DNA of 62,845 nucleotides, filler included, from Atractiella rhizophila (taxonomy: Eukaryota): assembly GCA_021432655.1 (NCBI GenBank). It is 3 parts of 3 records of this genome, joined end to end, with 100 filler letters (N's around TTAATTAATTAA, not from the genome) between each part and the next. Parts side by side here need not be neighbours in the genome. Positions count along the whole stretch, not along the records: positions 22,804 to 49,497 come from MU271756.1; positions 49,598 to 62,845 come from MU271760.1; 1 more part is not named here. One strand, given 5' to 3'. Within the stretch, counting starts at the first letter, position 1. Every line of letters starts with the position of its first letter. Under the pieces are notes generated by a model that saw nothing but the letters and a program-made list of their open reading frames with translations, had not been told where the DNA came from and searched no databases. Positions 18,399 through 62,845 of the stretch are shown here, in pieces. The translations under genes and the position numbers were made by a program.

Positions 18399-20907
18399 CC
18401 TACATATTCTATTATCCTCGCAATCAACCAGTTCACTTGCACGAAGGAGTGGTAATGATTGAGTGCTTCCGCGGCGCTGATCGGGATTCATGGATTCTTT
18501 TCTTCGCTTTCACCTGATTTCCTCGTCACAAGTGCAGTTCACATGCTGGCAGACGTCAGCTTGATCTGAACCGTCCTGTTCTTTAGATGTACATACCCAC
18601 GTCTTTGGATGCGTTTCCATCTGACAGCAGGTGGAGCCTTTCACTTTTCGAACGCTGCATCCGTTCCGAACTTCATCTGTGCTGATACACCTATACCGCA
18701 TACCTGGGCGATGAGAAGGCTCCGCGGCCGGCTATTATGCGCGTTGAACGAAGGAAAGTCGTTGACGCTCAGGAGCTCGTTCCTTCTGTAACATGGTGTA
18801 GGAAGAAGGACTTACGCACACCAGCAGAGCAAAGAAACCGGTTTCGATCACCTTTTCTCCTCTCTCGATTCGTTCGAGACCGTAACTCCTCCCGTTACGT
18901 TGCCAAACTTCTGCCATAATGAAGATTTTGGAAAGGCAGCAAGCCGTCGCATCCCAAGTTGAAGTTCCATTTTCTTCGTGTCCTGCTTGATTCCGTCTGG
19001 CAGCTCCTCTGTGGATGACTGTCCTTCGATTCGACGGTCGAGTAAACATGACGAGACAGGACAGAAGTGAACTAGAAAGGATGATTTTCCATTTCCTAGG
19101 TGTACGTGGAAAAGGGGATAGGGAGAAAGGTGATCGAGTTGGCTATTCCCAAATGTCTAGAACCTACACTTGGACTACCACCCCGCTTGGTCTCAGCCTG
19201 AAGGGGAAATAACGGCATAGATCACACAACTGTCCTCACACCGTGGTCTGATGGCGGAATGTTTTGAAGAGACCGATTTGGATTCTTTTCACATCTCCTT
19301 GTTCTACTTTTCTAAAGGCTCGGAGGCACTACTAGTCATTGATAGGAGAATATGGAATGAGTTGGAATGAGGATGGTGGATGGATATGCAGGCTTGAGAT
19401 GGAAGTTCAGGAGTTCAGGCGCGCCGCGCGCGGAATCAGGAGTGCATTTCTTCAGTTAGTTGTGATGATCTGTGTGAAGATTGCGCTGGTCATTGCGTAT
19501 GATGATGAATGAACTGAACATCATTGAATCGCTGATTGAATCGATAACGATTTTTAGCATTTCTATTTGTGTTTTCCTTTCCTTTCCTCTCGTTATGAGA
19601 CTGGCTTTGAAATTGAGGTATTCTCTTTGTTATTGTTGACTCCTCTCTCGCTCTTTACGTAGACTTCCACCGCACTCGCGCAAACACCTGACCTACATAT
19701 TCTATTATCCTCGCAATCAACCAGTTCACTTGCACGAAGGAGTGGTAATGATTGAGTGCTTCCGCGGCGCTGATCGGGATTCTTTTCTCTGCTTTCACCT
19801 GATTTCCTCGTCACTAGTGCAGTTCACATGCTGGCAGACGTCAGCTTGATTTGGAACGTCCTGTTCTTTAGATGTACATACCCACGTCTTTGGATGCGTT
19901 TCCATCTGACAGCAGGTGAAGCCTTTCACTTTTCGAACGCTGCATCCGGTCCGAACTTCATCTGTTCATCTGTGCTGGTACACCTATACCGCATACCTGG
20001 GCGATGAGAAGGCTGCGTCGAACGAAGGAAAGTGGTTGACCTCGTTCCTTCTGTAACATGGTGTTGGGGGACGTACCCCCACCAGCATAGCAAAGAAACC
20101 GGTTTCGATCACCTTTTCTCCTCTCTCAATTCGTTCGAGACCGTAACTCCTCTCATCACGGTGTTGTCAGATCACAACTTGAAGTTCCATTTTTCTTCAT
20201 GTCCTGCTTGATTCCGTCTCTGCAACTAGCAGCTGCTCATGACTGTCCTTCGATTCGACGACGGTTGAGTAAACATGAAGAGACAAGACAGAAACAAACG
20301 CGAAAGGATGATTTTCCACCTCCTAGGTCTCCATGGAAGAGGGGATGGATAGACGATGATCGAGTTGGTTATTCTCGAATGTCTAGAACCCATACTTGGA
20401 CTACCACCCGCTTGGTCTCAGCCTGAAGGGGAAATAACGGCATAGATCATACGACTGTCCTCACACCATGGTCTGATGCGTATGCGCGGAATGTTTTGAA
20501 GGGACCGATTTGGATTCTTTTTACATCTCCTTGTTCTACTTTTCTAAAGGCTCAGAGGCACTACTAGCCATTGATAGGAGAATATGGAATGAGCTGGAAT
20601 GAGGATGGTGGATGGATATGCAGGCTTAAGATGGAAGTTCAGGAGTTCAGGCGCGCCGCGCGCGGAATCATGAGTCCATTTCTTCAGTTAGTTGTGATGA
20701 TCTGTGTGAAGATTGCGCTGGTCATTGAGTACGATGATGAATGAACTGAACATCACTGAATCGATAACGATTTTTAGCATTTCTATTTGTGTTTTCCTTT
20801 CCTTTCCTCACGTTGTGAGACTGGCTTTGAAATTGAGGTATTCTCTTTGTTATTGTTGACTCCTCTCTCGCTCTTTACGTAGACTTCCACCGCACTCGCG
20901 CAAACAC
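18399..20907. repeat. Head-to-tail tandem repeat, ~1.29-kb unit, at least 2 diverged copies, running into a gap
   Basis: CCTACATATTCTATT… starts at 18399 and 19692. Both copies end …CGCGCAAACAC (19687, 20907), and they differ by substitutions and indels. Confidence 0.95.
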
Positions 20908-22703: not shown

Positions 22704-22803
22704 NNNNNNNNNNNNNNNNNNNNNNNNNNNNNNNNNNNNNNNNNNNNTTAATTAATTAANNNNNNNNNNNNNNNNNNNNNNNNNNNNNNNNNNNNNNNNN
22801 NNN
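22704..22803. other. Assembly gap with artificial TTAATTAATTAA spacer
   Basis: N run, then ttaattaattaa, then N run. The same pattern occurs at ~49498-49597. Confidence 0.95.
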
Positions 22804-41785: not shown

Positions 41786-43779
41786 ATGTCGTCCTCTTCT
41801 CCAGCTCAAAGCTTCGAGGTATGGCCAATTCGACGCGTCGAATGAAGCTTATGACGCGTCCAGGTGCTCAGCGCCGAAATATCAGACGTCCGGCCCATTG
41901 CGAGCGTGCTACGATGCATTTCTTTCTCTCCCGTGTGCTTCTCCGTCGTCCGTAACAGTGTGGATGTTGATGTGACCTCTGCGTTTGGTGGGATACTGTA
42001 GAGAGCTGTGCTGATGATTTCAGAGAATGGCATCAAGTTGACCGTCATGTGTGGCAAGACAGCTCAAGGTGATCTTTTGTCATTTCACTATCCTTCCATT
42101 TTTGTTTGTTCGCGTCGCGTCCTCGAATTGAATGAGGCTAGACTTTATGTAGTGACGCTGTGTGATTATTCAACCATCGAACGATATGCGTTGTTAAAAA
42201 ATTCTTCTGCCTGCTTTCATATTTTATCTCGATAAACATCTCCAGGTACAGGTCAAGAAAACCTGTGGAGTAAAAAAGAAACGACGCGTTGTTATTATGG
42301 GAAATATATCTAATCAAGATCTATCCAGAATCAGTCCTCGGAGAGGGCAAATCACTTACTGGAAGCTTTGTTAGGCTGTACGAAGCCAATGCGTGCATTT
42401 AGCTTCCCTTGAAAGTTTTGATAATTTAATTCGTCCTTGTATTCAACGTGAGCAATTACAATTAGCAAGGCAGAAGTGCCTAGTACAATGACTCTTTGAA
42501 AAACCTTCATACAACTAGAAGTACCAGGCTTGCATATCATTTCCTGACTCTTTTCCACAACATGACTGCTGAGCTTTCTTCTTTATGCACAGCGCACGCT
42601 TATCTCCTCAAGCCGCTCTTCAGCACCTACACCTACACTCCAGGCCTTCCGTCAACGATCCCAACCTCCTCACCCTCCCTCTCTTCCTCTCAACCAAATG
42701 GCAATGGGCCGTCCGCACACGACGACATTGAGATCAATCTACACACGATGATAGAGTGTCTCAACATCTTCGGGTCGTCCAATTCCTCCTTCGCAGGAGA
42801 AAGGAATGAGTGGAAGAAGAAGAAGAGGATGGGTTGGGGTAGCGATGATGAGGACGAATCGTTTGAGAGGGGGAGGGAGAGGGAGGAAAGTGGTGGAGGG
42901 ACGGGAAAGAGTACGAGTTTGAGGATCTCATATAGAGGCGAGGGACATCCCTTTATCCTTATGCACGTTTCATTCCTCACTTTTGGGGATTGGAACTGAT
43001 GCCGTTTTCGATGGGCATAGTTTGGAAGAAGGAGGTGTGGTGGCTCGATCCGAGCTCACGACTTACGAAGCAGAGCCTGAACTCGACCTTCATTTCGTGC
43101 ACGATGAGCAGAGATGGATGGTGATCATGAAGGTGCTGTCTCTCGTCCATCGGACCTAGAATCCACTTAACAAATGATGGTGTTTGATAGAGCCAATACC
43201 TCTCTGACGGTCTCTCCTCCCTCGATCCCTCTGCCTCCTCCCTCTCTTTCATCTTCTCTTCTCCCTCTTCCTCTCAAAACCCAAACAAAACCCCCACACG
43301 CTCTCGGCCCACAAAGCGACGAAAGACGGAAGAAGGTACTGGGAACGTCTTTCGATTGGAGGCGAAAGGAGCGTTGGGAAGTTCGTCAACTGAGTTTGGG
43401 GAGGATAGGGACGTCGTGGAGCTATTTGAAGGTACTGGAAGCGAAGGAGAGGAGAGGTATGCATACAAGTATGGGGTCATGTTGAACGTGAAGAAAGCGC
43501 TTCAAATATCTCAGAAAACTGTCCGTCTTTTTTGCTTTCCTGCTTTGTATTGACCGATGGTGGTTTGGGAAACAGTCGATGAGAGTTAATGAAGAGGGAT
43601 TGCTCAGTATGCAATTTCAGATGCTCCTTGATCCTGGGAGTGGCGGAAGGGGCAAAGGGGAGACACATGGCTACGTCGAATTTTTGGTGTGTATCCAATG
43701 TGTTTCCCCTTTGACTTGTGGCGTCGGCAGAGCTATATAATCGACTTAGTGTCTGCCACTGATTGACGGGGAGGATTGA
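41786..43779 (+). CDS. RAD1: 9-1-1 checkpoint clamp subunit, Rad1/Rec1/Rad17 family
   Basis: Spliced GIKLTV…QAHAYL…FSTY, IECLNIFG, LRISYRGEGHP..L, MKSQYL, and KALQISQKTSMRVNEEGLLSMQF. Confidence 0.82.
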
Positions 43780-44902
43780 GCACCTTCTAGATTCAGGCAT
43801 ATCATAGTTATCCAGGTAACAACTTCTATTTCTTCGAAAGCTCCAGCTAACTGAGACTGTGGATGGAGCAGCTTTGCGGCTTGCCTCTCTCTAACCCATT
43901 CCACCTGCTTCGACCCACCAGAATTCTTGTCATGTGCACATGCCACCACTCCATTTTGTCCCACAACATTTATTCTCACAGTCTCACGATCAGTGCAATG
44001 CAATCCATTATCCGTCAAGCCCCCGTCAAGCCCCTTTGACGTCTTTCAGCCATTAATCCGACGTTCCAACCTGGGAACTCGGTTCGAATTGCATCCACAC
44101 CGCGCTCTCCGCGATCTTGTCATTGGACCTAACAGAATGAATGCTTTCACACTGTTTCTGGGTTTTACTCCAGAAGGAGAAGAGGAACGAGAATGAGATC
44201 TGGAAGAGACCACTGCCTCTGCTTGGCATTTGCTCTGAAAGCGCTCATAATTATCACGTATTGCACTCATTGGACAGGAAGTTGCAGGAAAACTTTGTTT
44301 TTGCCTATCAGGCTCAATCCATCCAGTTCAATCGATCATCGATGTGCGGCAATTGATATCTATCATAATTTCCCTCCGAGTACGGGCCGCTCCTTTTCTT
44401 TCGATTCTTCGCGGACGAAGGCAGGGACAACGGTTCTAATCCTGTCTTGTCGTCTTTCTTCTATGATCTGCATCAGTCTGCATGCAGGGACGTAAATGTG
44501 TCATGAAAGGCAGCCGATATTCAGCCGAAGACATCATGTCTGACTGATGGACTGATCCTGATGTACTTGCCTGGACACGTTTTGGCTGAGTAGACAGGTG
44601 AGCGGACCGCCCTGCAGAATAATCACGCTGCGACACAGCAATGTTGTTCGTTAGAAGAAGGGACACTCCAGCGCCGTGACGAGAATTCATGCATCATGTG
44701 TGCGTGGAGGCACGAAAGTTGGGCTCCATAATTCGTAGTAAACACTCTCAATTCCAAGCAGAGACATCTAGTGTACAATATAGCTGAGAAGACATACTAA
44801 AGAGTGACTAGGCCATCCTCCTACACCTATCGAAGTGAATCAAGCACCGAGAGTCCATCTAGTCAGGAGATGATTGGGTATTCGCGCTGAGAGAGAAGGA
44901 GA

Positions 44903-45941: not shown

Positions 45942-46966
45942 AGTTGTGATTGCTGGTGCGTAAGAAAGCAGGGACAGCTAAAGTCGTCGTTCGTGGTTCT
46001 GGACACGGTGACACTGCTTTGTGAGTCATATACTGTTCGATTTCACTCCGTCAGACGCATATTGTAATGGTTACAACTATTTCATTAAATCATAAGGATG
46101 ATACGTAGACACCTATGGGTCTAGAACGAATGTACTCAAGGTTGCTTACTCATGGACAAAGGCTGGTTTGAGCTGGTGCTGCTGCATTTGAAGGATTTGA
46201 GGATGATAGTAAATGAAATTGTCAGTTATTCTTCTGTGTGTCCATCCCAGCAATAGCCTTTGTCTTCTTACAGTTGCTGAAGCCGTTTACGGTATCGTCT
46301 AAATGCCAGTGGGCGAAAGACGAAGCTTAGCGATTTAGAAATGTTATAATTATACGGCTTCTTAGCAACTCTTTCACGGAAGCAAATCCTGCAGCGATTT
46401 CAAAGCTTGCTATCTATGCGTGATGTTGTCTTTAGATTAAACAGTCTAGCATCTTTAACTAAGAAAGATGAGAGCTCTTGATAGCACCTTGCTCCTGTTT
46501 TATGTCTGACTCGACAAGTCACATATGAGTGGCTAACCTGGTAGTCAAAATGGTTACAGAAACTCGAAGTTTGATATTGACACGCCCATGATCTTTTGAC
46601 GATCAGCACCTTGCAAGCTTTCAGCCTTGTTTCAGCGCAAATTCACCTGTCAATGGCCTTAGCTTCTACGCACAGACATCTTCGAAATTGAGGCCGAGCA
46701 CGAAGGCAGAATACTTACCCGTTGATGCAATATGATAAATTCGAAAAAGATTCAGTCAATAAAAGCCCAGAAAACAAAGTTCTGGTCCTAGTCCAACGCA
46801 CGTGAGTAAGTCACTGAGTCGCGCGGTGATCACCAAAACTCATCAACCAACCGCTCTCCCAAGCTCACTCAGAGCTCTCCATTCAACGCTCTTTGATCGC
46901 ATCCTTTCTTTGCCACCAAGTCTCCAACCCAAGAACACATTCCCTGCACACCCATCAAGCCAACGC

Positions 46967-49497
46967 ATGACCTTCTTGAAGGAAATGGCACCAGAGGGCG
47001 GTCAGATGAGTAGCAGCACCTTGCTAGACATGAATTTGGGTCTCTCTTTCTTCGTTCCGGAAACTTCCAATCCACACTCTCATTTTCTCTACGAGCTTTC
47101 AGTCTTGGCCAACGTTCCGTATTCTGCTGAACCCGGGTCTCTCATGGACACTTGCTACAAGGGTCTCATAGAGGTGGCGGAAAGGGACGGCGTGGACGTG
47201 AACGAGGCCAAAACGACGCATTTCTTTGATACCTTTGACAAACTTTGGAAACCTTTCTCCAGTCTGAATCAGAAAGACTTCGCGGATGCTGTACTTCCCT
47301 CTCTACCTTACAAGTTTGTAGACGTTCTCTCTGACCCTTCAGACGCCTCCAAGTTTGAGGACAACGTTTATTCCCCACTCCACGTCGAGGAGCAAGCAGA
47401 ACACATCCTAACCTTTGTGGCTCGCAGAACCGGCACGCCGCGCACCTCGAAGTTTCGCCCCCAACTCATATCGCGAGCCATTGACATGTGGTGCTACGTC
47501 CTCAGATCAGGCCTCCCCCTCCGAGAATTCACTCGAATCTACGCCTACAATAAATTTGCCGGAGAATGGGTCCATCTCGTCAACGTCATGTCCTGGCAAG
47601 ACACCACCGACTGCCTGTTCTACAGCAGCTCTCGCTGGCGCCAGAAACCCCACGAAAGAGTCAACTTTAGACCACCAGCGGCGGAAACAGCTCAAGTAGG
47701 ATGGACGGAATTGGGCATGCCAGTATTCTACACCTGGCATACACCGGAAGAGCTGGGCTTGGAAGTAAAGAGGGAAGCGATGGAAGATGCAAGACGGGAA
47801 GAAGAGAGGGAGGAGGAACTGGAGGAGGAACAGCAGAACTCAGTAGAAGCAATCCAATACGTCCTCGAAGCCACCGAACCGGAAGAATTCAACCGTCGCA
47901 TCGAGGAGCGGAACCTATCGGCGCAACAGATCCAAGTCCTACGCATCTCCTTCGACAAGAACTACCGGAGGATTCAGAAGGGGAAGGGGAGGCAAGAAGA
48001 GCCATCCCTATCCTCCCATCACTTCACCAATGCCGGACTCACATACAGGCCATTCTCCGTGGTGAGACCGCAGGGCGGGTCGGCGGGCCCCCACACTGGG
48101 GGGGGTCTTCGCAACGACGCCTTTAACCAGTAAGCAGCTCCACGTGGTGGGAGTGCCTCTACTAAGGTGTGACGGCTATAGTACCGTACAACCTGTCGGA
48201 AACCCTCTTATTAGGGAGGGACCTCTCAACATCCCTATAACATCGTGAGCAGCTCCACGTGGTGGGAGTGCCTCTACTAAGGTGTGACGGCTATAATACC
48301 GTACAACCTGTCGGAAACCCTCTTATTAGGGAGGGACCTCTCAACATCCCTATAACATCGTGAGCAGCTCCACGTGGTGGGAGTGCCCGTACTAAGACGT
48401 GAGGGTTGCAGTGCAGTACACCCGATCACAAACCCTCACACTGGGGGAGAATTACTCACCTTCCCCCCAAACTCAGCTGCACAAATGACAGCGAACCCTT
48501 TTCCTAGCGAAAGGTTCCACAACAGCGCTCCACCACCACCACCAAGAACCCCCCATAGCTGGGGAGGCCCCCTCCCAGCCACCCTTAAGTCCACCTGGCA
48601 TCCCCAAGAAGGGACTGCAGTTAACCGCCTCCGAACACAGCTACCAGGAGCTAACGCTGGCCAGGGAAACCTTCAGAACCCCACACCCGTCAACCCACCA
48701 AATCACCAAGACCTGGGACAACAACAGCCCCGGGGTGGGTGGGGAGACACGGCACTACCCACGCAACCCATACAGCCCCTGCTGTCGCCGCACGCCCCGA
48801 TCAGGGGATTCCCCGCAAGCTTCGTGCAAGCAGCGGGCACCATCCCACCTTTCGCGAATCCCGGCAACACCCCCCCAACCAGAGCCCAATTTCTCCACGC
48901 CTACCAGAACTTCGCTCAAGCCAACCCCCCCGGTATAGGTCCAGAAGCGCCTCATCCGGCGAAGGGGCGACAGACACACCCACATGCCCCCCCCTCAGCC
49001 AGCGCGACCGCCCAGCCGCAGGAGCAGCCGGGGCACGCTCTGGGCCACGGTGGAAGAACGAGAGAAACTATAGACCAGCCAGAAGCAATGGCTTCGAAGG
49101 GAAAGCCCACAGCAAGGAGGAAGCATCGAGCTCCTGACTCCTCTTCTAGTGGGGATGACGGGGAAGGGAGGAAAAGACGACGGAAGAAGAGGAGAAAGAG
49201 CACACGGCACGCCAGCCGAGGACCAGACGCATCAGACCACTCCTCTAACTCAGACGCATCAACAGAGTCAGAGCGTTCGCGCCAGAAGAGACTAATCAAG
49301 GAGGCAAAATCTCAGAAAGACTGGAAGTATTCCGTCATCAACAAGAAATCCATTCCCACCATCCAAGTCGATTTCGACGTACCGGAGCTCAAAAAGAAAA
49401 TACACGAGAACCCACACGCCTACATCCCTGCCCACTTACCAACGGCGTGGAAACAACTCTCCGCAGAGTACGGGCTGGACGAGTCAAAGGAAATCAA
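46967..49497 (+). CDS. Element-encoded protein of unknown function, copy 1 (spliced ORF1+ORF2; possibly gag-like)
   Basis: First ATG common to both copies is 46967. Removing 48130-48181 and 48245-48411 joins the 443-aa and 391-aa ORFs in frame. Contains an acidic coiled segment, a Pro-rich region and a basic RKRRRKKRRK stretch. Confidence 0.7.
48130..48411 (+). repeat. 115-bp intron+exon tandem module (three intron copies, two exon copies)
   Basis: GT(A/G)AGCAGCTCCACGTGGTGGGAGTGCC starts at 48130, 48245 and 48360. Confidence 0.92.
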
Positions 49498-49597
49498 NNN
49501 NNNNNNNNNNNNNNNNNNNNNNNNNNNNNNNNNNNNNNNNNTTAATTAATTAANNNNNNNNNNNNNNNNNNNNNNNNNNNNNNNNNNNNNNNNNNNN
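49498..49597. other. Assembly gap with TTAATTAATTAA spacer
   Basis: N run with the same spacer as at 22748. Confidence 0.95.
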
Positions 49598-49649
49598 ATC
49601 AGCGCTATCACCTCGTCTGATGTTCGATGTTGAATCTCTGCTCTCCAGC

Positions 49650-51237
49650 TTGTTTATGTCATCGGCTTGCTGTCCTTCATGACCATCACGGCCGTAGTAG
49701 CTTCATCAATCAACCAGTCTTGAGTATGGTAGATTAACACAGTTCCTCTTTCAGGGTTCCACCAGTTGGAATCGACGGTGGAACATCGCTTCCTTTTCGA
49801 TGTATTTTCGAAAGCGTCACGTCCATCACATTCAGCTGGCCTCTCGAGAGTCGTACACCCCATTTCACGAATCGATATGGTTGTGGAAATGATGGTGGAA
49901 TCAGAATCTTATTGAGCTTTATCTGAGTGCTCGAACTTCTTCGTTCAGCACTTTCACAGTTTCTCGTCAGTCGCTCGAAAGGCAGCCGGAGACTCTCGAA
50001 GCGGCGAGGGAGGGACTTGTCTTCACAATTGGTGTGCGAAATCTTTGCCTTCGTACCAACTTCCGAACGGATGAACGCGAAAGGGAAACGCACCTTGGGA
50101 AGGGACAACTTTCATGCTAGCTTCTTCACCGGAACTAAGCTGTGGATAGCACCACTCCCATTCCATGGTCAGTGAAACATTGAGAAAACGCAACCTGTGA
50201 CATAAAAGTCAATGATAGCATTTTATCCTATAAGATGGGGACAGCGCAATCCGAAGTACTAGTTGGGACCGTTCAGTGCATACTATGTACGTCGATGCTG
50301 CTCGAAGAATAAAGAATCAGTGCATACTGAGCACGTCAATACTCGTCGGGAGAACAACAAAATGTAGGGTAAATGGCAAAGGGCAGGAGGTATTTGCGGT
50401 GTGGAAGCAGTATATGGTGGGATGGGCAGAGAGGATAGACACCGGTGAGTGATCTAAATGTAGAAAGTGAGAGGGGTTTGTTATGTCAGCTTCAAGCTTG
50501 GAAGAGAAGTTTTCGGCCAGACTGCAGGCTTGGATCAAGCAAGAATGTATTTCCTTTCTCATCTCTTCTACCTGTGTGGATTCAGTGCTATTTGTTGCAT
50601 TGCGAGCGTGCCCAGCACCTTACGACATCTCAATTGAAGCGCAAAAAGGCGTCTTGATCTGAGAACTTGTTAAGCCAAGCTTCTCGGTGGCTTTCCAGAA
50701 TGTTAGAGCGGTTTTGATCGCGAGGAGTTTCTGCCTTGAAGATGGGAGTGACATGTGTCTGTCAAATGATGCGACCGATGGGAAGCACCTCCACATCCCG
50801 AATTCGTTCACGATTGACGGAGACTTCAGCAATTTTGTGCTTCCACACGATGTGGAAGGGTCAACGTCATGTCCCACGAGGTTGAAATACTGTACAAAAG
50901 CGAGTTTGTGCTGCTGTCCCTCATACTCGAGATTGAAAAGAAGAAGGACCTGTGCGAGGCGGAAATGACGCTTTGCTGTTGCCCGCTTCTAACGAATCAC
51001 AACGCATCTTGCTGGATCCTGGCACATCTCGAGCGTACCAAGAGTCCTTAGCCCGAATAGAATACTTGATGAGTGCTTTTGCCTTTGTGAAAGCTGCAAG
51101 ATTCCTCCAGACAGAGGTAACAGCTCCGAAACGCGTAATGGAACCCTGAAAATCGGGCAACTGGTCATCATGTTCGTAGCCGAACCGTGCATCATCAATT
51201 ATAACGATATTCGATGGTTTCATTTCGTTGAGAAAGC
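49650..51237 (-). pseudogene. Degenerate gene fragments, weakly F-box/LRR-like
   Basis: Successive minus ORFs in different frames. SFLNEM…RFGAVTSVWRNLA loosely resembles the end of an F-box. Confidence 0.25.
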
Positions 51238-51671
51238 TCAAGATGTGATGGACGAAGTGCGAGATATTTGAGGATACGACACTTGATAAGCGTTTGGATC
51301 GCTCGATATATCCTTCCCTCCAGTGAAGCCAGGTCCCTTGATGGGGACAGCCTTCTCGTCATCACCCAACTCTACTCCCCGATGAGCTGTGATGGAAACA
51401 AGGATTGAATACGAACTCTTTCGACTTGTATGATCGTTTCATGCTGGACCGAAATGGCATTCATGAGCATGCTCGGTGTATTTGCCATTGACTTCGGGCC
51501 AGTGGTATTTCCCGGAGTAGTGAGGGATTCCCTCATCAAGAGATTCACAAGCAAGGTGATGGAGTAGGCACGGCCAAGATTAAAAAGAATGCCCGTCGGT
51601 ACATTGCTGAGATAGATCAGCAGAGGCAGTAGCCGGGAGCAGGCTACATACGTTGCATTGTTTTGCAAGTA
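51238..51671 (-). pseudogene. 3' remnant of a DUF6534-like membrane protein gene
   Basis: Intron-flanked exon NVPTGILFNLGRAYSITLLVNLLMRESL plus a tail exon. Its upstream part is replaced by the element terminus. Confidence 0.5.
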
Positions 51672-51860
51672 GGTTGGTTGATGAGTACTGGTGATCACCG
51701 CGCGACTCAGTGACTTACTCACGTGCGTTGGACTAGGACCAGAATGAAGTCCGTAGGATATCCGAAATTACACTTCTGAGCACCTCTCACAAAAGGCTTT
51801 CGTGAACTTTAGTCAAGATTCACATCCGTTGGATTAGGACCAGAATTTGCTCCTGGGCTT
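51672..51860 (-). mobile_element. Terminal relic of the 46758/60143 element (two tandem terminal motifs)
   Basis: 51672-51744 is the near-exact reverse complement of TTCTGGTCCTAGTCCAACGCACGTGAGTAAG…CAACCAACC. A diverged AAGCCCAG…TTCTGGTCCTAATCCAACG lies at ~51827-51860. Confidence 0.85.
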
Positions 51861-52045
51861 GACACAGCTGCCGTTCAGGATCACTGTCCGCTAGGTAACT
51901 CGCTCTTGACGATCCCGAAGAACTATCATGCCGCTCAGCAAAAAGAACTACTTGCACAGCATAGATCCAGTTTCCCTCAAAACTTTGTCCAAGGGATAAA
52001 GAATCGATGGCGTTCCGTGCCTGCGATAGAACGTAGCTAGTTTCA

Positions 52046-53503
52046 ATGATTATCAGCCGTTTAGCTGAAGCAATTCACGCAGCCTCATCTCCTAGAACTT
52101 TGGATTCGTCACCATTGCGACGTCGCCAAACATCCCCAATTGCCCTGTTGCCAATTGAGCTGCTCTTCCAAATATTTTACCTTTTCTCGCCTCCACTTTC
52201 TCGCGTGGAAGATCTGGATCAACAATTTGTCGCGCAATTTTGCATCTTTCGACAGGTTTCCTTCGCGTTCAGCGAAGTCGCCTTGTATGCCCTACGACAC
52301 TACTGCACTTCTTTTGACGATTCCTTTGTTCCTTATGCACTGAACATCAGGTATCTTAGAAACATGGCGACCGAACATAGATTTCTGAAATGGGAGAAGG
52401 GCGAATGGCTCAACTTGGGTCTGCCGCCTCCATTGTCCAACGAGCCGTGGTTAGAAATACTGCGCACTCTCCTTAAACATCCGGGCCATCCGAATGTGCA
52501 GATGTATAACCTTCCATGGATCAATTTTGGTCTGAATGACGTCTTGGGATCCATTTGTGCGCACCTACCAATGTCTTTGAGACTTTTCTTTGTAAATCAG
52601 CGAGCCGAACTATCTTTGCACCAAATATTCGATATCCTGTCCTACAAAGTCCAACGTATCGCGATATGTGGACTAATTCCTTTTCAACCACGTCTTTTGC
52701 GAAAAGCAGGACCGACAGCTTCAACGTCGTTGTCGAGTCCATGTCGATATCTTGATTTGCTTCGATGTAGCCTTTGTGATGAAGACCTGTATAGCTTGGG
52801 ACTACCCGAGAAAAGGAATGCCAATACACTGAGATTCAGCTCTTTCCATCGCTCCCTGACTGCTGATGGCTTATGTCACTTTCTAAAACGACTTTATACT
52901 CGTCATCTTGCCTGTGCTTTCCAGCAGCTTTCCGATAACAGCCAACACAGTTTGGATAGACCTCTCGACCGCGAACTGCTTGACACGCTCTCCAACAGAT
53001 CAGAGAGTACACTATATCTCGACGGAGGACGAGACGATTCGAGCTTTATTTCTGAACGATTTCTGACAGTCAATTTTGATTGGAACCGCCTTTCAGAACT
53101 TGTTTTAATTTATTGCCATTTTCCGTCCGGTGTAATCTGCGTGTTCCTGCAGGCTGCGTGTCAAATCTGCAGTCATGGACGTTGCAAAAAAACGATTGTT
53201 CAGCTGAAGCCGTTCTTTGGAGATTGTGATTTCTCTACCTCCTGGTTCTCCGAAGCACTCGGGACGTTCCAAACCTCACTGGTGTCGTCTTCCGTCGAAT
53301 TATTCCACAATAGATATTGGCAAGAACCACGCTATCCGCTTCAGTTCGATCCGTCGAGGTCTGGGACAGTGTACAGCATTTTCTGCATGGGGGATACCTT
53401 CGATGTTGATCTTTGGATTATTGATCAAGATGATGCGCCGGGAAACGAGGAGTCTATCTTCTTTTGGAAAAATTTCGATGTAAAAAAGCGGTTGACGTCT
53501 TGA
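52046..53503 (+). CDS. Intronless F-box-like protein with Leu-rich C-terminal region
   Basis: 485-aa ORF. PIALLPIELLFQIFYL…FRQVSFAF fits the F-box pattern, followed by LRR-like LxxLxL segments (CRYLDLLRC, LSELVLIYC). Confidence 0.55.
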   Translation: MIISRLAEAIHAASSPRTLDSSPLRRRQTSPIALLPIELLFQIFYLFSPPLSRVEDLDQQFVAQFCIFRQVSFAFSEVALYALRHYCTSFDDSFVPYALNIRYLRNMATEHRFLKWEKGEWLNLGLPPPLSNEPWLEILRTLLKHPGHPNVQMYNLPWINFGLNDVLGSICAHLPMSLRLFFVNQRAELSLHQIFDILSYKVQRIAICGLIPFQPRLLRKAGPTASTSLSSPCRYLDLLRCSLCDEDLYSLGLPEKRNANTLRFSSFHRSLTADGLCHFLKRLYTRHLACAFQQLSDNSQHSLDRPLDRELLDTLSNRSESTLYLDGGRDDSSFISERFLTVNFDWNRLSELVLIYCHFPSGVICVFLQAACQICSHGRCKKTIVQLKPFFGDCDFSTSWFSEALGTFQTSLVSSSVELFHNRYWQEPRYPLQFDPSRSGTVYSIFCMGDTFDVDLWIIDQDDAPGNEESIFFWKNFDVKKRLTS

Positions 53504-54399
53504 CCGTGATTCCTCCGTTGCCCTCAGACTTTCATTCCGCATTTCGAAGAAGGACAGAGTGAGCAGGACATCTTCAAGGACTCGTATGGATTAATTAACA
53601 TCGTGACGGTTGGTGTTACTTCTTATATAATCACATCGCAAAAACAAGTCTTGTGTGGTAAACAGTGCATACTGTTCCTACATCTTTCCACAATACCGTC
53701 ATCAACCGCTGAATTTCAATAGTATGTTAGCTGCTCAAGGCAGCGGGAAATGACGATAGGATTTCGAAGCCCAGTCTACAGGCAACGTAAAATTGGGGCG
53801 TGAGCGATTTTCTTCTGCCGTGCGATTCAGTGAACAGAATGGAGTCCGCTTTTCTTGAGCAGTGGAGCTCGCCATGCCGGTAGCTAGTAGCACTTGTCCA
53901 TCACATTCATTCTCTTTGTGGGATCATGTGGGGAGAGACTTCCCCTGTATTATGGAGACAAAAACCGACAATGGGATTGGTCCAACCAAGCTCTGAACGG
54001 AATACAACAAAGTTTTAGTCACGAGGTTACTAGGGACACGAAAAAGGACGGAGAGTAAAGAGTCAAAGCAAAGGGAGCAAACACCGTGACCTCAGAAAGA
54101 AGAGTTCATGCAGGCGTTGACGCTAGAATTCTAAACTGACATGGAAAGGAAGAAACAGACGAACGACATTGAAGGACAGCACAGCACAAGTTGTCCATTA
54201 GAGATCCCGACACCACTCGGCAAATCGAAATAAATCTGGATGAGTTTTGTGCAGCGTGCAGCGTTTTGTGCTGACCACATGAGAGCTATATGGTGGGTAA
54301 GCAGCAGTTTACAGATAACATACACAGAGCCTACATAATAACTGTTGGTCTTTTCCCATCAAATTTGAACGATGGTTTGTGCGAACAGTCACCTATGAG

Positions 54400-56000
54400 C
54401 CAATATCATCGTGAGACTGAATGAGCCTAAGCGAGAGGGAACTAATCCTACCAATTGATTTTAGTTGTCCTTTGAGAAAATCTACAACGTAGATTAGACC
54501 AAATATGAAACCAAGTAATCTCACAGTTCCGCTCTGTCTGATTCCTTGCTGAAGGCAGACACTCCTTTCCGCCGACCGTAACTTCAACGTATTCCTGGCT
54601 CTAATCTTTGCTAAAGACAACAGGACCTTCCAACACTTCTTTGACTAGACCTCGACCCTGTTTCAGGAGTTCTTCCAAGATCCAAATCTTTCTTGCGCCT
54701 CTTTCGAGAGAATGAATGTCCTTGTGAATGGGGTCCCCAGAGAAGTTCAGTCCTGGTTAAAAGCTACTTGGGTCCGAGACAAAGCTTTGATACCCTGGAG
54801 TAGAGACTGACGAATGGGTGTGTTAGTGCATAATTAGCATTCGGGAAAAGATGTTAATCGTATGCTCTAGTGAAGCTGAAAACGTACCTGCAAATGTACC
54901 ATGTGCCGTGGAAGCTAAAAAGGACGGGTTGACCTCTTGGAAAATTCCCAAGGCCGTTTTGTGGAAAAGCCTCGAAGCCAGAGCATCATTTGGGTCAAGA
55001 GGACAGTGGCTCCCATGAGATGTAGTCGAGGGACTGAAGTCGTAGGAAGTGCAGCTGAGTTTGGAAGCTGCGATGCAATTGAGACGACAGGTACTTGAAA
55101 GTTTTCAGTGTCTAATGTCTGGTGCTCAGAGGAAACTGAGGTGACCTTGATCGAGTCGCAAGGGCAAAAGTTCCTATGTGTTTCGGGAACTGAAGAATCA
55201 TTTGAATCATTTGCACCCAGAGATGGATAAGGGAGAATGGGATCCTGAGGAATATGTTCATTTGGTCCAGCTGCAAAGTCAAAGGGTATCACAGGCAAGA
55301 ACAAAAAGTTCTGGCTTTCAGGACCACTCGATGTCAGCTGATGCGGTCATTACCATTAAGGTTTCAGCGCAATGTAAGGCTAACAACTGGAACAAAGAAC
55401 AGTGCGAGCTAAAATTAAAACTTTCTTCGCTCTCCGTACTTGTGCCAGTATACTTTATACTCCATCCAAGAGGATGTGACGTAGCTCTTTCCAGTTCTGG
55501 TGTGGTCCGCTAGACCGTCATCATTCGCATTCGGGCGAAAAACGAAGAATGACAATTGATGACATTTGAGACGTAGACTTCTGCGTCTGCAAGATCATTT
55601 TGATTGTTTGTTCTTGAGCACCCACTTTGCGATTCCTTTCGCGGACTTAGGCAGTCTTCGAAAATAGGCCGCGTTCCACTGCAGTTAACCGTGGCAGTGG
55701 AAATGTATCCTCGCTTCAGAAAGTCTGCATCCTCCAAATCGTTTCGAAAAGCCCTAAGTTCTTCAGCCGCGAGCTTCAGTTCCTCAACGACCTTCTGAAA
55801 GATGCTTCTGATGCGTGTGGACCTTGCATCATCAGCTTTGGCACATTGTGCTATTCATAAACCGCTGGTGGACAATACATGTCAAGTGCATAAATCAATG
55901 ATCATAATCGATCTTGGTTTTGGCGAAGATCTGTCGCCATTTCTCCAACCTTTCCTTGGCTAATTCGTCCTGTGGCAGACCGGTTGTAGCAAACGAAACG
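54400..56000 (-). pseudogene. Decayed coding sequence of unknown family
   Basis: Helical, protein-like fragments (DELAKERLEKWRQIF; FQKVVEELKLAAEELRAFRNDLEDADFLKRG) broken by stops and frameshifts. Confidence 0.25.
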
Positions 56001-57787
56001 AAACGGGCGAGACACGATCATTAAAAGGGAAAGCCCGAGCATCAGAACTGAGCTAGACATGGTTAGACAGAGCTACGAAGCGAATTTGGAATGCCTTGAT
56101 GGAGCTATTAGAGCTAAGCAACATCTATCAGTTAAGCCTAAGCGACCAGGACCGCGCGCCTATACTTAAGCATTGTTTTATAACAGGTGTCTTGGGGTCA
56201 CGTCAGACGACGACCTTCAAGGCGACTGCTCGGAAGCTGCACAACCTCTGATCAGCAACGCCTCAGCGCTGGTGAAGTCGGCTTGATTGTAACTACCAAG
56301 CGGCAAACTCATGCAAGTCTCCGGGAACGTTCGTGACGTTCACATGCCATCGATTCTAAAGTGGATCACGGTACTGCATAGGTATTGCTGGTTTTTGAAA
56401 ACATAGTATCGATTGAGAACGGTTCGGCCGAATATATACAGCACACGCACAGAGTTCGTTAGACTGTTTCTGCATGCGGATAACGATTATGAGCACTTCT
56501 CTTCTTCAAAAGATACCCGGTGTAGGGAGGAGCAGGTTGAAGGCAGTTCTTTGAAGCACCATTTTAAGCGAGTTCGCTTTTTGCAAGCGCCTCAGACCGA
56601 GACGTCTCAAATTGAGGGGGCTTTAGGGGATGTGCAGCTGGGTCGAGCCAGTCCACGATTCATGGCCCTTGAGGCTGAGGCCAGACGGGCCTCTGGAGCC
56701 CGCTGTAGCGCTGCTCCGTAAACCGCGAACATCCTGTTCAAGGACGCGTCCGGCCGGCATCTTCTATTACGCCGAGGCAATAAAATAATAAACGCCAGCA
56801 TAATGGAAGATGAAAGAGCAAAAGCGCTGATTGCCCAAGCGCACCATGCAATAGCTCTCACAGGATACAGGCACACTCCTGAGCTTGCTTTAATGACCGC
56901 AACCGCAACCCTTACCTGAACAGGCGACGCACCTCAGATGCCAAAGTGGCTGTCCTCTGACCTTTCCTTCCTATACTTGAATTAGTCCCACCGGATGTGG
57001 AGAGCCGTAAAAAATCGAGCCCTGATGGCGTGGCGAAAGTTCAAAATGAGGAGGTAAATGAGGTTTAAAAGCACCTTGCCATCCCCAAACACTCTGTAAG
57101 ACCTGTCGGATCCAGCTAGGTGAAGAAACAAGATATGGATTGCCTGCCATTGAACCGTGGAAGAGGCGGAAAAAGGTTGAGCAAGCGACTGCGACCAGGG
57201 GCTAAATGGACAAAGGGGCTTCAGGTGAGTCATGTCAACGGACTTTGAAGCTCCGTGTTACGTAAGGAGACGCGTTTGGGTCCGATTTTTTTCGGTACAG
57301 AAGGATGTTGGAGATCAATGATACAATGGAAAGGAGAGAGAGAGGAGATGGGTGTGTGGACACAAATCTCGATCGTTTGCCTTGCATTCCGGATGCCGTG
57401 TCAAACATGTGCACTTCACCGCTAGTCCGGACTTATAAAGCATGGCTATGGGTTTTGCTTTCTGTTTTCCCCAATCAAATATCTTTACTGTATTCGCATT
57501 TGCTTATACGTGATTGGGGAACATTAGAATCTGCGAGTAAAGATAAGAGCTACTATTTTCATTTAAGGACCTTTCTGAGATCAAGAGGAAATGACCTTGG
57601 GTCGCGCGTGCTCATGTCCTGCTCATGTGGTTTCTTGAATTCACGAGACATCTCTGAAACAAGTGTGTCAGGGCCTTCATCCCTCAGGCCCCCAACCCAC
57701 TCGCAAGGGGCATGGCCCCTTGAACCCCACACTGATCATGTAAGAGTTCGAGTCCAGTACGGTTCCGTCTCTGCTGGGCCAGGTTAC

Positions 57788-57951
57788 TAAGGCTCCCATA
57801 CGGGGTGCCCGTGGCTCGTACGGGGAAACCCGTGCGGGGTTTGAGGTTTAAAAAGTCAACCCATCCCCTTCCCTCCCCCCGTAGGCGCGCCCCGTGACGG
57901 GGAAGGGGAAGGGGACCCTGCGGGGAAACAGCTCTCGGGTACCCCAAAGGG
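57788..57951. repeat. GC-rich cluster of CGGGG/CCCCG motifs, possible DNA-transposon terminus
   Basis: Starts TAAGGCTCCCATACGGGG and has many direct and inverted CGGG(G) motifs. No partner TIR was found in the window. Confidence 0.35.
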
Positions 57952-58671
57952 ATCAGACCAATGAGATAATGGATAATAATTGTACGCAAAATAATCAGCA
58001 CCAGACATGAGATTGACGATTAGTTACGTCTTCAATTGCCGTCCCTCTGTTGTGAGGGCTTACTGTGGCGGCTGTTCCTCAGGCTGTTCCTCCTTTCCTG
58101 CTCCTACGCGCCATGCGTCACATCGGATTGAACCACGCACTGAACCATGCGGAGATCCACATCCACAAAAGAATTTTTTGAGAAATCCGGCAGACCCGTC
58201 GCCCAGGGGTCGGCGATAAAACTGGTCGACCAGTTTTGACCTGCTTTTTGGCTGCAAATTTTCTCAAAATTGAAGCCCAAAACCATTTTTCGCTTTACGC
58301 AAACCCCTGGGGGCGACCAGTTTGCCCGCTTTCTACCCGTCAACCAACCTGAGGGGCCAGGGTACGTAACGGCCCCTCAGGCATCCTCCCTTGCCGCAGG
58401 TCATTGTGCGAAGAAACATTTCCACCAAGCCGCTTTCACCAGGACGCTTTAGAAGGTGCATTTGCGAGTCAAGAACAAGAGAGAGCGAAACAAGGTAAGT
58501 ATTCTTGTGATGTACGGGTGCGAGAAGCTGGTGGCGGCTGGTAATAGATGGGTGCTGATTGATCTCGATTGCCCAGCGCGAGGGATCACACCGTATCTTC
58601 ATCTGTTGTGATAAAAATCATCCCATCGATCAGCTCCATACCCGTCAGCGAAGATCACGTCACTCGCGGTC

Positions 58672-59187
58672 ATGTCGAGATCATCTCCTGAGCACCTGCT
58701 GCATACTTTACCATCCGAAGAAGACCCTCTCCTCAGGAGGGAGAACGTGGTCCTTAGGGAACGAGTGGACGTTCTTGAGAATAAAGTCGTCATTCTCAAC
58801 GCTGAAGTCGTCACCCTCAAGAAGATTAATTCTCAACTCAACGCTGAAGTCGTCACCGTCAAGAAGATTAATTCTCAACTCAACGCTGAAGTCGTCACCC
58901 TCACTGGGAGAATGGAGAACATGGAGCGGCAATTGCAACTAGTCTTTCAACGGACGAACGCCGATCAAGCAGCAGGTGTGAAAACCTTGTCTCGCAGCGG
59001 GGAAAGTGAGAGGGGTCTCTCAAGCCATCATTCTCACTTGGGATCACACCATGGCTCTCACCCATCTTCCCTCGTGCCAACAGAGCCGGTCCCCGAATCC
59101 CGCGATGCTCCTCCAGGCACATCTATCGAGCATATTATTCTTAGTAACGCAATGAGCAATCTTTCCTTCAATCGTCAAGATGGATAA
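58672..59187 (+). CDS. Hypothetical coiled-coil protein with 14-aa tandem repeat
   Basis: 171-aa ORF with heptad-phased LNAEVVTLKKINSQ repeats. Confidence 0.4.
   Translation: MSRSSPEHLLHTLPSEEDPLLRRENVVLRERVDVLENKVVILNAEVVTLKKINSQLNAEVVTVKKINSQLNAEVVTLTGRMENMERQLQLVFQRTNADQAAGVKTLSRSGESERGLSSHHSHLGSHHGSHPSSLVPTEPVPESRDAPPGTSIEHIILSNAMSNLSFNRQDG
58795..58903 (+). repeat. 42-bp tandem repeat, ~2.6 copies
   Basis: CTCAACGCTGAAGTCGTCACC at 58795, 58837 and 58879. Confidence 0.95.
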
Positions 59188-60142
59188 ATGGAATTTTCTG
59201 TTGCAATTCGGTTTCTCCTTAGGATGATCACGACATAGCCTTTTTTTCTGATGCCTGACTAAGGGAAGTCGACCAATATCCAGTGAGAGTTTCAGGACAG
59301 TTGTCGACATTGGTTTATCTTTGCTCAGCACTTTAGAACAAAAAGATTGAAAAAAGGTAATGCCATGATATCGCTTGAATGACGACCTTACTTCCTCCGG
59401 CAAATCCTTCCAATGATGTCCCTCCCTAGCAAACATTTGAAGTGTTAACTGGTTTGATATTAGATTCTGGAGACACCTGCACCAGCCATCCTGAGGAATC
59501 TGAGCATTTCCGCGGTGTTGTGGGTTCCGGCATACTTAAGATTGCATCGGTCTTGCTCTTGAACTGATGACGCTTTGATGGTCCAGTCCACACCGACACC
59601 GTGCCACATTCTCTCTATTTCTGGTTTCAGGAAGTAATCAGATTGAATTGATATCATGCAATGTATTACGGCTCAATTGAAAGAGATAAGTACTCAGTAC
59701 TGATAACACGGCATCAGTGATGAAAGATAATATAAGTCATGTTTTGGGAAAGACTCTGTTGCAGCTCAAAGAGGACACGAATCTTGAAGGCCGTTGCTTG
59801 AAAGTGGATGTGTCTGATGCTCCAATGCTGAACGAGGTGTCTTTTCTTCTCACTGGTATTCTCAGAGACGGTCAGGGCAGACGGCCATATTATATAGTAC
59901 CATTGCAATAGAAGACATCTACACACAAACACAAATGAAAGATGTACTGGCTTACCATCTGTACGCTCTGTCTTATGCCTCAGTTGGCTTCTTCTCTTCT
60001 TTACGTGACCACAGCAGTGAAATTTAAAGGGAGGGAAGGGGAGAGATGGGATGTCGTGCATTTTCCACTTAGTATACAATTCACACTCAATATAACTTAG
60101 GGTATAGGAGTATAGGGGATACGACATATATTGATTTAGATA

Positions 60143-62516
60143 TATAAAAGCCCAGAAACCAAAATTCTGGTCCTAGTCCAATGCACGTGAGTAAGTCACT
60201 GAGTCGCGCCGTGATCACCAACACTCATCAACCAACCGCTCTCCCAAGCTCTCCCAGAGCTCTCCTTTCAACTCTCTTCGACCGCATCCTCTCTTTGCCA
60301 CCAACTCCCCAACCCGAGAACACATTCTCTAACTGCAGCCACACCCACCAAAGCCAACGCATGACCTTCTTGAAGGAAATGGCACCAGAAGGCGGTCAGA
60401 TGAGTAGCAACACCTTGCTAGACATGAATTTGGGTCTCTCTTTCTTTGTTCCGGAGACTTCCAATCCACACACTCTTTTTCTTTATGAACTTTCAGTCTT
60501 GGCCAACGTTCCGTATTCTGCTGAACCCGGGTCTCTCATGGACACTTGTCACAAGGGTCTCATAGAGGTGGCAGAAAGGGACGGCGTGGACGTGAACGCG
60601 GCCAAAACGACGCATTTCTTTGATACCTTCGACAAACTTTGGAAACCTTTCTCCAGTCTGAATCAGAAAGACTTCGCAGACGCCGTACTTCCATCTCTGC
60701 CTTACAAGTTTGTAGACGTTCTCTCTGACCCTTCGGACGCTTCCAAGTTTGGGGACAACGTTTATTCCCCACTCCACATCGAGGAGCAAGCAGAACATAT
60801 CCTAACCTTTGTGGCTCGCAGAACCGGCACGCCACGCACCTCGAAGTTCCGCACCCAACTCATATCGCGAGCCATTGACATGTGGTGCTACGTCCTCAGA
60901 TCAGGCCTCCCCCTCCGTGAATTCACTCGAATCTATGCCTACAACAAATTCGCTGGTGAATGGGTCCTTCTCGCCAACGTCATGGCCTGGCAGGACACCA
61001 CCGACTGCCTGTTCTACAGCAGCTCCCGTTGGCGCCAGAGACCCCACGAAAGAGTTAACTTTAGACCACCAGCGGCGGAAACGGCTCAAGTAGGATGGAC
61101 GGAATTGGGTATGCCAGTATTCTACACCTGGCATACACCAGAAGAACTGGGCCTGGAAGTAAAGAGGGAAGCGATGGAAGATGCAAGACGGGAAGAAGAG
61201 AGGGAGGAGGAACTGGAAGAGGAACAGCAGAATGCAGTAGAAGCAATCCAATACGTCCTCGAAGCAACCGAACCGGAAGAATTCAACCGTCGCATCGAGG
61301 AGCGCAACTTATCTGCGCAACAGATCCAAGCCCTGCGCATCTCATTCGACAAGAACTACCGGAGGATTCAGAAGGGGAAGGGGAGGCAAGAGGAGCCAAC
61401 CCTACCCTCCCATCAACTCTCCAATGCCGGACTCAGATACAGGCCATTCTCCGTGGCGAGACCGCAGGGCGGGTCGGCGGGCCCCCACACTGGGGGCGGC
61501 CTTCGCAACGACACCTTTATCCAGTAAGCAGCTCCACGTGGTGGGAGTGCCTCTACTAAGGTGTGACGGCTATAGTACCGTACAACCTGTCGGGAACCCT
61601 TATATTAGGGAGGGATCTCTCAACATCCATACAACATCGTGAGCAGCTCCACATGGTGGGAGTGCCCGTACTAAGGCACGAGGGTTGCAGTGCCGTATAC
61701 CCAATCACAAAACCCCACACTGGGGGAGAATTCCTCAACTTACCCCCAAACTCTGCTGCACAAACGACGGCAAATCCTCTCCCTGGAGAAAGGTTCCACG
61801 ACAGCGCTCCACCACCATCAACTAGAACCCCACACAACTGGGGAGGCCCCCTCCCAACCACCATTAAGTCTAACTGGCGCCCCCAAGAAGGGACCGCAGT
61901 AAATCGGCTCAGAACCCAGGCACCAGGAGCCAACGCTGACCAGGGAAACCACCAGAACCCCACACCCGTCAACCCACCAAATCACCAAAACCCGGGACAC
62001 CAACTGCCTGGGGGTGGGTGGGGAGACACAGCATTACCCACGCAGCCCCTACAGCCCTTGCTGTCGCCGCATGCCCCCATCAGAGGATTCCCCGCAAGCT
62101 TTGTGCAAGCAGCGGGCACCATCCCACCTTTCGCAAATCCCGGCAATACCCCCCCAACCCGGGCCCAATTTCTCCACGCCTACCAGAACTTCGCACAAGC
62201 CAACCCCCCCGGCATAGGTCCAGAAACACCCCATCCGGCGAAGGGACGACAGACGCAGCCACATGACCCCCCTTCAGCCAGCGCGACTGCCCAGCCACAG
62301 GAGCAGCAAGGACACCCTGTGGGCGACTGCGGAAGAACGAGAAAAATTATAGACCAGCCAGAAGCAACGGCGTTGAAGGGAAAGCCCGCAGCAAGGAGAA
62401 AGCATCGCGCTCCTGATTCCCACTCTAGCGGGGATGAAGCGGAAGGGAGAAAAAGACGACGGAAGAAGAGGAGAAAGAACATACGGCACACCAGCCGCGG
62501 ACCAGATGCATCAGAT
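60143..62516 (+). mobile_element. Dispersed repeat element, copy 2 (similarity to copy 1 ends at ~62516)
   Basis: Collinear with 46758-49236, then similarity stops abruptly after GCATCAGA. Confidence 0.7.
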
Positions 62517-62537
62517 CGAGACCGGGCAAGCTACTAG
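60361..62537 (+). CDS. Element-encoded protein, copy 2 (spliced; C-terminally truncated)
   Basis: ATG at 60361. Removing 52-nt introns 61524-61575 and 61639-61690 joins both ORFs in frame. Confidence 0.65.
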
Positions 62538-62845
62538 AACACTCAAAACAGCAGCCTGTTCTACTCAGCCAGAGGACTCAGCTTGAACTAAAGAAAGCTG
62601 AGCAGGTCGGGCATGAGACGTCTCTCAACAAAGGTGCGGCAACCATCCACCCGTCCCTACATCCGCACGCCTAAGAGCACATAAAAGAAAAACTCGAGAC
62701 CTTGCAACTTTAGCTGAACCTACCACCCCTGCCTTAAGAATAACTACTGCCTCATGAAGGTCAGAAAGACTCTAAAACGGAGGAACTAATCAGAGAAGAC
62801 GACTCTTGAGAGACTGAGACAACTACTCAGGCTCAATCTCCTCCC

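Follow-up and report, generated by a model that had tools for sequence, protein, structure and literature searches.

A probable Ngaro-type tyrosine-recombinase retrotransposon with four introns behind repeated gag-like sequences of Atractiella rhizophila

Retroelements normally lose introns. Spliceosomal introns were reportedly described by Goodwin and Poulter in 2004 in Ngaro elements of Histoplasma and Phanerochaete; that work is not known to include an intron position shared across families or the tandem duplication of an intron-exon unit. The Ngaro class itself is known, and introns within it are probably not new. In the literature outside the papers of Poulter, Goodwin and Butler (2004, 2005, 2015) and Repbase Reports, no description of introns in Ngaro elements was found, and the available portions of PMC3212892, PMC5718144 and PMC13465315 hold nothing on them.

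Pucciniomycotina and Agaricomycotina are rich in Ngaro elements (Muszewska et al. 2013, PMC3783388), a superfamily defined by the layout A1-ORFs-B1-A2-B2 and by the lack of an MT domain (PMC13465315, PMC3266345). In the VIPER/SIRE elements of Trypanosoma cruzi the repeats were missed by a 454 assembly and found with PacBio (PMC6681497), and the Ngaros of Cafeteria include solo AB repeats (PMC8547959). Retention of introns by a retroelement has been called highly unusual (PMC8557442). Here, we compare with these systems a repeated, gag-like sequence of A. rhizophila.

Copies in the window and the family behind them

The window is the whole stretch of DNA analysed here, 62,845 nucleotides long. 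It consists of contigs C575 (26,836 bp), C577 (26,694) and C581 (26,401), placed in falling order and beginning at base 1 of C575, with N44-TTAATTAATTAA-N44 linkers of 100 bases each at the joins; 22,703 of the 26,836 bases of C575 are shown in it (join at 22704). Since three neighbours stand in falling size order with an identical 100-base linker at each join, the adjacency of C577 and C581 is most likely the result of concatenation.

Comparison of the window with itself recovered the two same-orientation copies that an earlier note on this DNA had described (93% across 1533 bp, followed by 88.5% across 992 bp) as well as the inverted relic of their 5' end. It also revealed an internal repeat of 115 bp, of which copy 1 has three units and copy 2 has two. 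The sharp 5' boundary was likewise recovered, the first base being a T at 46760 in copy 1 and at 60145 in copy 2. The clustering of the copies within 16 kb, in contrast, is probably an artefact of contigs joined by a linker, as copy 1 stops where C577 does, and copy 2 and the relic belong to C581. The features are as follows.

46760..46914, plus strand: A1 terminal repeat of copy 1; element start TAAAAGCCC, with the start fixed by the flank-to-flank joint described below
46967..48129, plus strand: gag exon 1 of copy 1; orphan N-terminal domain (~278 aa) and acidic coil; dN/dS 0.13
48130..48181, plus strand: gag intron 1 of copy 1; 52 nt, GT..AG, containing an in-frame stop; splicing predicted from the sequence only
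48182..48244, plus strand: 63-nt gag exon of copy 1
48245..48359, plus strand: tandem duplicate of the 115-bp intron+exon unit of copy 1; its intron ends AA; matching joint in run X3
48360..48411, plus strand: gag intron 2 of copy 1; 52 nt, GT..AG; acceptor used in the X3 joint
48412..49497, plus strand: gag exon 3 of copy 1; Pro-rich linker, basic run and start of the conserved NPHAY gag core; truncated by the contig end
49498..49597, no strand: linker between C577 and C581; 100 bases, probably not a biological gap
51672..51860, minus strand: relic; two partial A-repeat pieces, 51672-51745 and 51820-51860 (A 24-97 at 96%, A 8-50 at 84%)
60145..60299, plus strand: A1 terminal repeat of copy 2; second subfamily
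60361..61523, plus strand: gag exon 1 of copy 2
61524..61690, plus strand: intron 1 (61524-61575), 63-nt exon and intron 2 (61639-61690) of copy 2
61691..62516, plus strand: gag exon 3 of copy 2, to its departure from the family sequence; dN/dS 0.24
62517..62845, plus strand: non-family sequence interrupting the gag of copy 2; the element resumes past the window with pol, YR and B

Two other features of the window were recorded. An intronless frame of 488 codons (52037-53503, plus strand), F-box/LRR-like by eye and without a Pfam hit, lies just downstream of the inverted relic, and a tandem duplication of ~1.3 kb with 85% identity occupies 18399-20907 and ends at an 835-base N run.

Copy 2 does leave the family sequence at 62516, as had been stated, but it is not a 5' fragment: C581 runs on into pol, YR and the 3' end past the window. 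The gap at 49.5 kb, in which the note had placed the catalytic part unless it was deleted, is probably not a biological one; the pol and YR of copy 2 lie beyond the window on C581. In the assembly, three near-complete copies (on C2, C176 and C581) extend over 7.1-7.6 kb to a common 3' end, and their order is A - gag - RT/RNase H - YR - B, about 7.1 kb, with all parts co-oriented and the YR split in two frames. The repeats of the window are the gag half of a 7.1-kb YR retrotransposon; the note's best guess, the 5' gag-like half of a DIRS/Ngaro-type element with its catalytic part elsewhere, is borne out by the RT/RNase H and YR that full-length copies carry downstream.

Between the two copies, 44 of the 68 differences in exon 1 fall at third codon positions (binomial p 1e-7), and the protein is conserved, both as proposed from the sequence: gag exon 1 has a dN/dS of 0.13 across 387 codons (copy 1 against copy 2; Fisher p 2e-15), with 0.09 in the globular part and 0.24 in exon 3. 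Values of 0.09-0.27 were obtained in 13 of 13 comparisons covering all ORFs, those of pol, YR and the C-terminal gag part between subfamilies being 0.09-0.19 and that of the RT 0.12. All ORFs are under purifying selection. The N-terminal domain of Gag has no Pfam family, no match among 1967 candidates of longer length and no usable Atlas match; its only 3 matches show 76-96% identity, and its single-sequence model has a pLDDT of 35.

The introns, the purifying selection and the orphan N-terminal domain would suit a host gene, either a duplicated one, which had been named as an alternative, or a domesticated one. This reading is refuted: the 5' 1373 bases have 39 dispersed matches in the 51.5-Mb assembly (4 over full length) with unrelated flanks, full-length copies have RT and YR downstream, and stops, frameshifts or deletions are found in many of the copies.

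The pol alignment (pol and 19 of 66 homologues) gave a profile that matches the solved RTs of Ty3, caulimovirus and foamy virus (best E 6e-5); RVT_1 was matched by five of the 20 rows in the alignment. Across YR exon 2 and five sister YRs the R, K, HxxR and GRWK are invariant, and the profile built from them matches Cre (E 0.0015); Phage_integrase was matched by four of these six rows, the element's own row not among them. The element's own pol and YR rows had no Pfam match below E 0.001, and a single-sequence PDB search with the YR returned 0 matches. Named pol homologues are basidiomycete proteins, and among 70 tblastn matches to pol in the assembly there are several families at 30-43% identity.

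Pol ends ~45 residues past the last RNase H motif, so that, judged by length, it has no MT domain of the kind found in the pol of DIRS1-like and PAT-like elements, and the Pfam search of the element gave no match to Dam. Exact inverted matches of one end to the other are no longer than 9 bp, which leaves no ITR or internal complementary region of DIRS1-like type; end-to-end folding for terminal pairing, run without a shuffle control, gave nothing convincing. No long terminal direct repeat was found between the element ends, and this, together with a YR in place of a DDE integrase, separates the element from LTR retrotransposons (gypsy/copia/BEL). Its YR lies downstream of RT/RNase H, not upstream of RT/RH as in the VIPER-like order, and its RT is present and conserved, whereas a Crypton has a YR without RT. 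Based on this layout (gag, RT/RNase H, YR; without MT or inverted repeats), the family is probably a Ngaro-type YR retrotransposon of a basidiomycete-like fungus, with two subfamilies. It is a real mobile element, Ngaro-like in its workings and with putative split repeats. As the Ngaro type is a known superfamily, the "undescribed family" suggested earlier does not stand as a new kind.

Introns and spliced-form joints

The gag part of the element is interrupted by three GT-AG introns and the YR by a fourth, and the reading frames open once these are removed; in copy 1 the spliced frame stays open for 770 or 791 codons, as far as the contig reaches. The first two gag introns, of 52 nt each (GT..AG), flank the 63-nt exon in 5 of the 5 copies read; the old C802 copy has a damaged intron 2 acceptor. 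The duplicate intron+exon unit is carried by copy 1 and the C2 copy, and its intron ends AA; for that reason the 115-bp duplicate of copy 1 is probably skipped inside a 167-nt intron. In all three readable copies, gag intron 3, which is 50 nt long, separates a CX2CX4HX4C-like knuckle from the second zinc finger. The YR intron measures 44 nt, and the sequence on its donor side was found in each of 6 copies, in some of them in damaged form. Between subfamilies 0-4 of 52 bases differ in introns 1 and 2, against 8 of 44 in the YR intron, which hints, on small numbers, that introns 1 and 2 may be under extra constraint. From unspliced RNA, translation would give no more than a Gag fragment of 388 residues, together with a YR that has no catalytic half. 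A role of intron 3 as a gag-pol fusion switch was considered and rejected, as the apparent fusion is a 175-bp deletion in the C2 copy; the spliced gag frame ends past the second zinc finger in two of three copies.

Spliced-form joints were sought in four (X1-X4) of ten public runs against the C2 copy; none of the ten is on record as RNA, and the types of the four are guessed or not recorded. The intron 3 joint was found in three of the four, namely X1 (depth 66), X3 (197) and X4 (3.5), and not in X2. At place 5597 inside intron 3 the depth is 0 in X3 and X4, 492 in X1 and 778 in X2. A joint in X3 uses the acceptor of intron 2 and matches skipping of the duplicate unit, and one contig of X3 breaks off on the base with which the exon past the YR intron begins, with 66 further letters. 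No intron 1 joint occurs among the joints listed (15 of 31, four runs). Such joints represent either spliced RNAs or intronless DNA copies, and no intronless copy is among those read. X3 and X4 look like RNA; X1 is ambiguous, being guessed to be DNA and yet showing the intron 3 joint. Run X3 also has a 64-base GT..AG joint on the antisense strand, within an A repeat (L031:8861-8926).

Sister families of the same assembly have a predicted gag intron at another position. In 8 of 8 copies from three sister families an AG stands exactly 12 codons before [NH]PHA[YF], in phase 0; the survey covered 11 loci, three of which (C124, C84 and C5) had no gag motif found and were left unscored. For these predicted introns there is a single GT(A/G)AG(T/C) donor 308-553 nt upstream, and the frame upstream of it is open. 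The studied family has no intron at this position (2 of 2 copies), and at the five sister loci tested the YR is continuous where the studied family has its YR intron. The predicted 308-553-nt introns are at C409:18722-19205 and on C410, C548, C310, C76, C35, C713 and C706, and several contain short tandem repeats. On C76, within 42153-44700, a 49-nt GT..AG intron is predicted between the gag zinc fingers, like intron 3 (one of four copies by exact donor motif).

Element ends, solo units and missing repeats

The element starts with TAAAAGCCC and finishes with GCTTGGA. Ten of the 11 coding 3' ends have a readable flank, and A follows in none of the ten, so the Ngaro B1-A2-B2 end, and with it the split terminal repeats predicted by the earlier note, is not directly present in assembled copies; C2 and C204 have a common 2.6-kb flank and may be one site. 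The B-A junction pattern has 0 matches in the assembly; in contigs from metagenomes it has 6, each of them amid unrelated sequence. At 12 places there is a short unit of ~480 bp, A(160)-spacer(58)-B(263), its spacer being absent from coding copies. These solo units (3 tested for A, 4 for B) form no clade of their own and cluster with coding copies of either subfamily, the B of solo C691 being 1 base from coding C678 and that of solo C178 2 from coding C176b. Since they group with coding copies of both subfamilies, both recently had spacer-bearing parents.

In one X4 contig the last 11 nt of B run directly into the start of A, and an unrelated repeat (9 matches, with 1 for the control) ends just ahead of them; this is a single low-depth contig from the run with 0.09 of the words. 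A repeat of ~300 bp with a sharp end ...TTTCTCACT was seen at 9 places (L166-L174). No B-to-A joint is among the joints listed (15 of 31, four runs); only 3-4 of more than 20 B-end flanks are covered in X1 and X2, and short-overlap contigs are therefore easily missed. Summed run depths did not separate collapse from real loss. Among the sister families, the third, with a B of 165-168 bp, keeps B1-A2-spacer-B2, partly readable in C410 and complete in C409 (17351-25178), where the Ngaro copy has A1..B1-A2-60bp-B2 with a 168-bp B and carries stops, frameshifts and an insertion. In the second family, with a B of ~240 bp, the 11 matches include 4 coding copies without repeats and 2 solos, and the fourth (C713) has no split repeat in 16 kb.

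The solo units, the intact sister family and the B|A contig point to assembly collapse or recombination. Collapse during assembly we judge an even call and homologous B1xB2 recombination after insertion a possible but less probable route, while excision by the YR seems improbable. That the lineage simply has no such repeats is more doubtful still. In its full form, namely a YR retrotransposon lineage replicating without split direct repeats, with the A-spacer-B units as independent non-autonomous passengers, this last view is very unlikely in our judgement: it accounts for the lack of A2-B2 on all ten coding ends, for the absence of junction matches and for a second family that behaves alike in 4 coding copies, but the solos interleave with both coding subfamilies, the B|A junction is present in X4, and the comparable case of VIPER was resolved as an assembly effect (PMC6681497).

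At one site, X1 and X2 contain a flank-to-flank joint that skips exactly 7096 bases with 0 shared letters, the letters between being "not known". Insertion at this site is precise and without target-site duplication. The flank at the joint is itself duplicated in the assembly, and the joint (L031 near 1858 and 8955) corresponds to an empty site, which is either an insertion polymorphism or a paralogue of the duplicated flank.

Proposed life cycle and known systems

The following scheme borrows its circle, unspliced-template and YR-integration steps from the known Ngaro model. A master element A1-gag-pol-YR-B1-A2-spacer-B2 would be transcribed into spliced mRNAs for the YR and for a Gag that has two zinc fingers. 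Unspliced full-length RNA would serve as the template of reverse transcription, its packaging being hypothetical, so that new copies would inherit the introns. A circular DNA would be templated by the B1|A2 junction, and the YR would integrate it without target duplication. Recombination of A1 with A2 could leave the 480-bp solo A-spacer-B units, and coding copies without B1-A2-spacer would result from the 263-bp length of the B repeats, either by their collapse when short reads were assembled or by recombination between them once the copy had inserted.

The complementary A-ORFs-B and solo forms might also be products of the element's own recombinase: the YR would join the left end with the internal B1|A2, and a 7.1-kb circle with a perfect junction would reintegrate as DNA, Crypton-like, with its introns intact. 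This would account for two complementary forms in two families, for the precise ends and zero overlap at the flank-to-flank joint, and for the lack of intronless copies among those read. We nevertheless regard it as quite unlikely, because strong selection on the RT shows the element to be using the RNA route, the repeats are retained in the short-B sister family, as would be expected from collapse or homologous recombination, and the circles have no direct evidence.

Returning to the RNA route, four introns are an unusual load for an element that copies through RNA. We tentatively suggest, as a rather doubtful proposal taken as a whole, that introns may be an ancient working part of the life cycle of a fungal Ngaro lineage. 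One gag position would have been kept across families with RTs only 30-40% identical to the studied one, the others being gained or lost per family (a tandem intron-exon duplication, an intron splitting the YR), and intron retention would separate genomic RNA from mRNA. In its boldest form, an intron-bearing DNA circle would be cut by its own YR at the internal junction and yield the complementary A-ORFs-B and A-spacer-B forms. A four-intron family, an intron position shared by its sisters and two marked subfamilies together offer a natural system for the choice of unspliced RNA and for intron gain; the element could also test the little-studied model of Ngaro replication, and its copies are of a kind that mimics host genes in annotation pipelines.

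DIRS1-like elements resemble the studied one in having RT/RH and YR and in integrating without target duplication, but they own ITR/ICR termini and an MT domain, and it has neither (PMC3266345). Penelope-like elements also keep introns through retrotransposition; they differ in an unrelated RT class, a GIY-YIG endonuclease and introns located mainly in the 5' UTR (PMC8557442). VIPER/SIRE shares the pairing of a long element, with A and B at opposite ends, and a short A-spacer-B element, but its ORFs are in the order gag, YR, RT/RH, its host is a kinetoplastid, and the word "intron" is absent from the paper (PMC6681497). The fungal Ngaro groups 1-4 are like the studied element in their order of gag, RT/RH and YR, the lack of MT, their basidiomycete hosts and their mostly incomplete copies, often without full repeats (PMC3783388). 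The main text of that paper has 0 occurrences of "introns", whereas the element described here carries four, one of which splits its YR.
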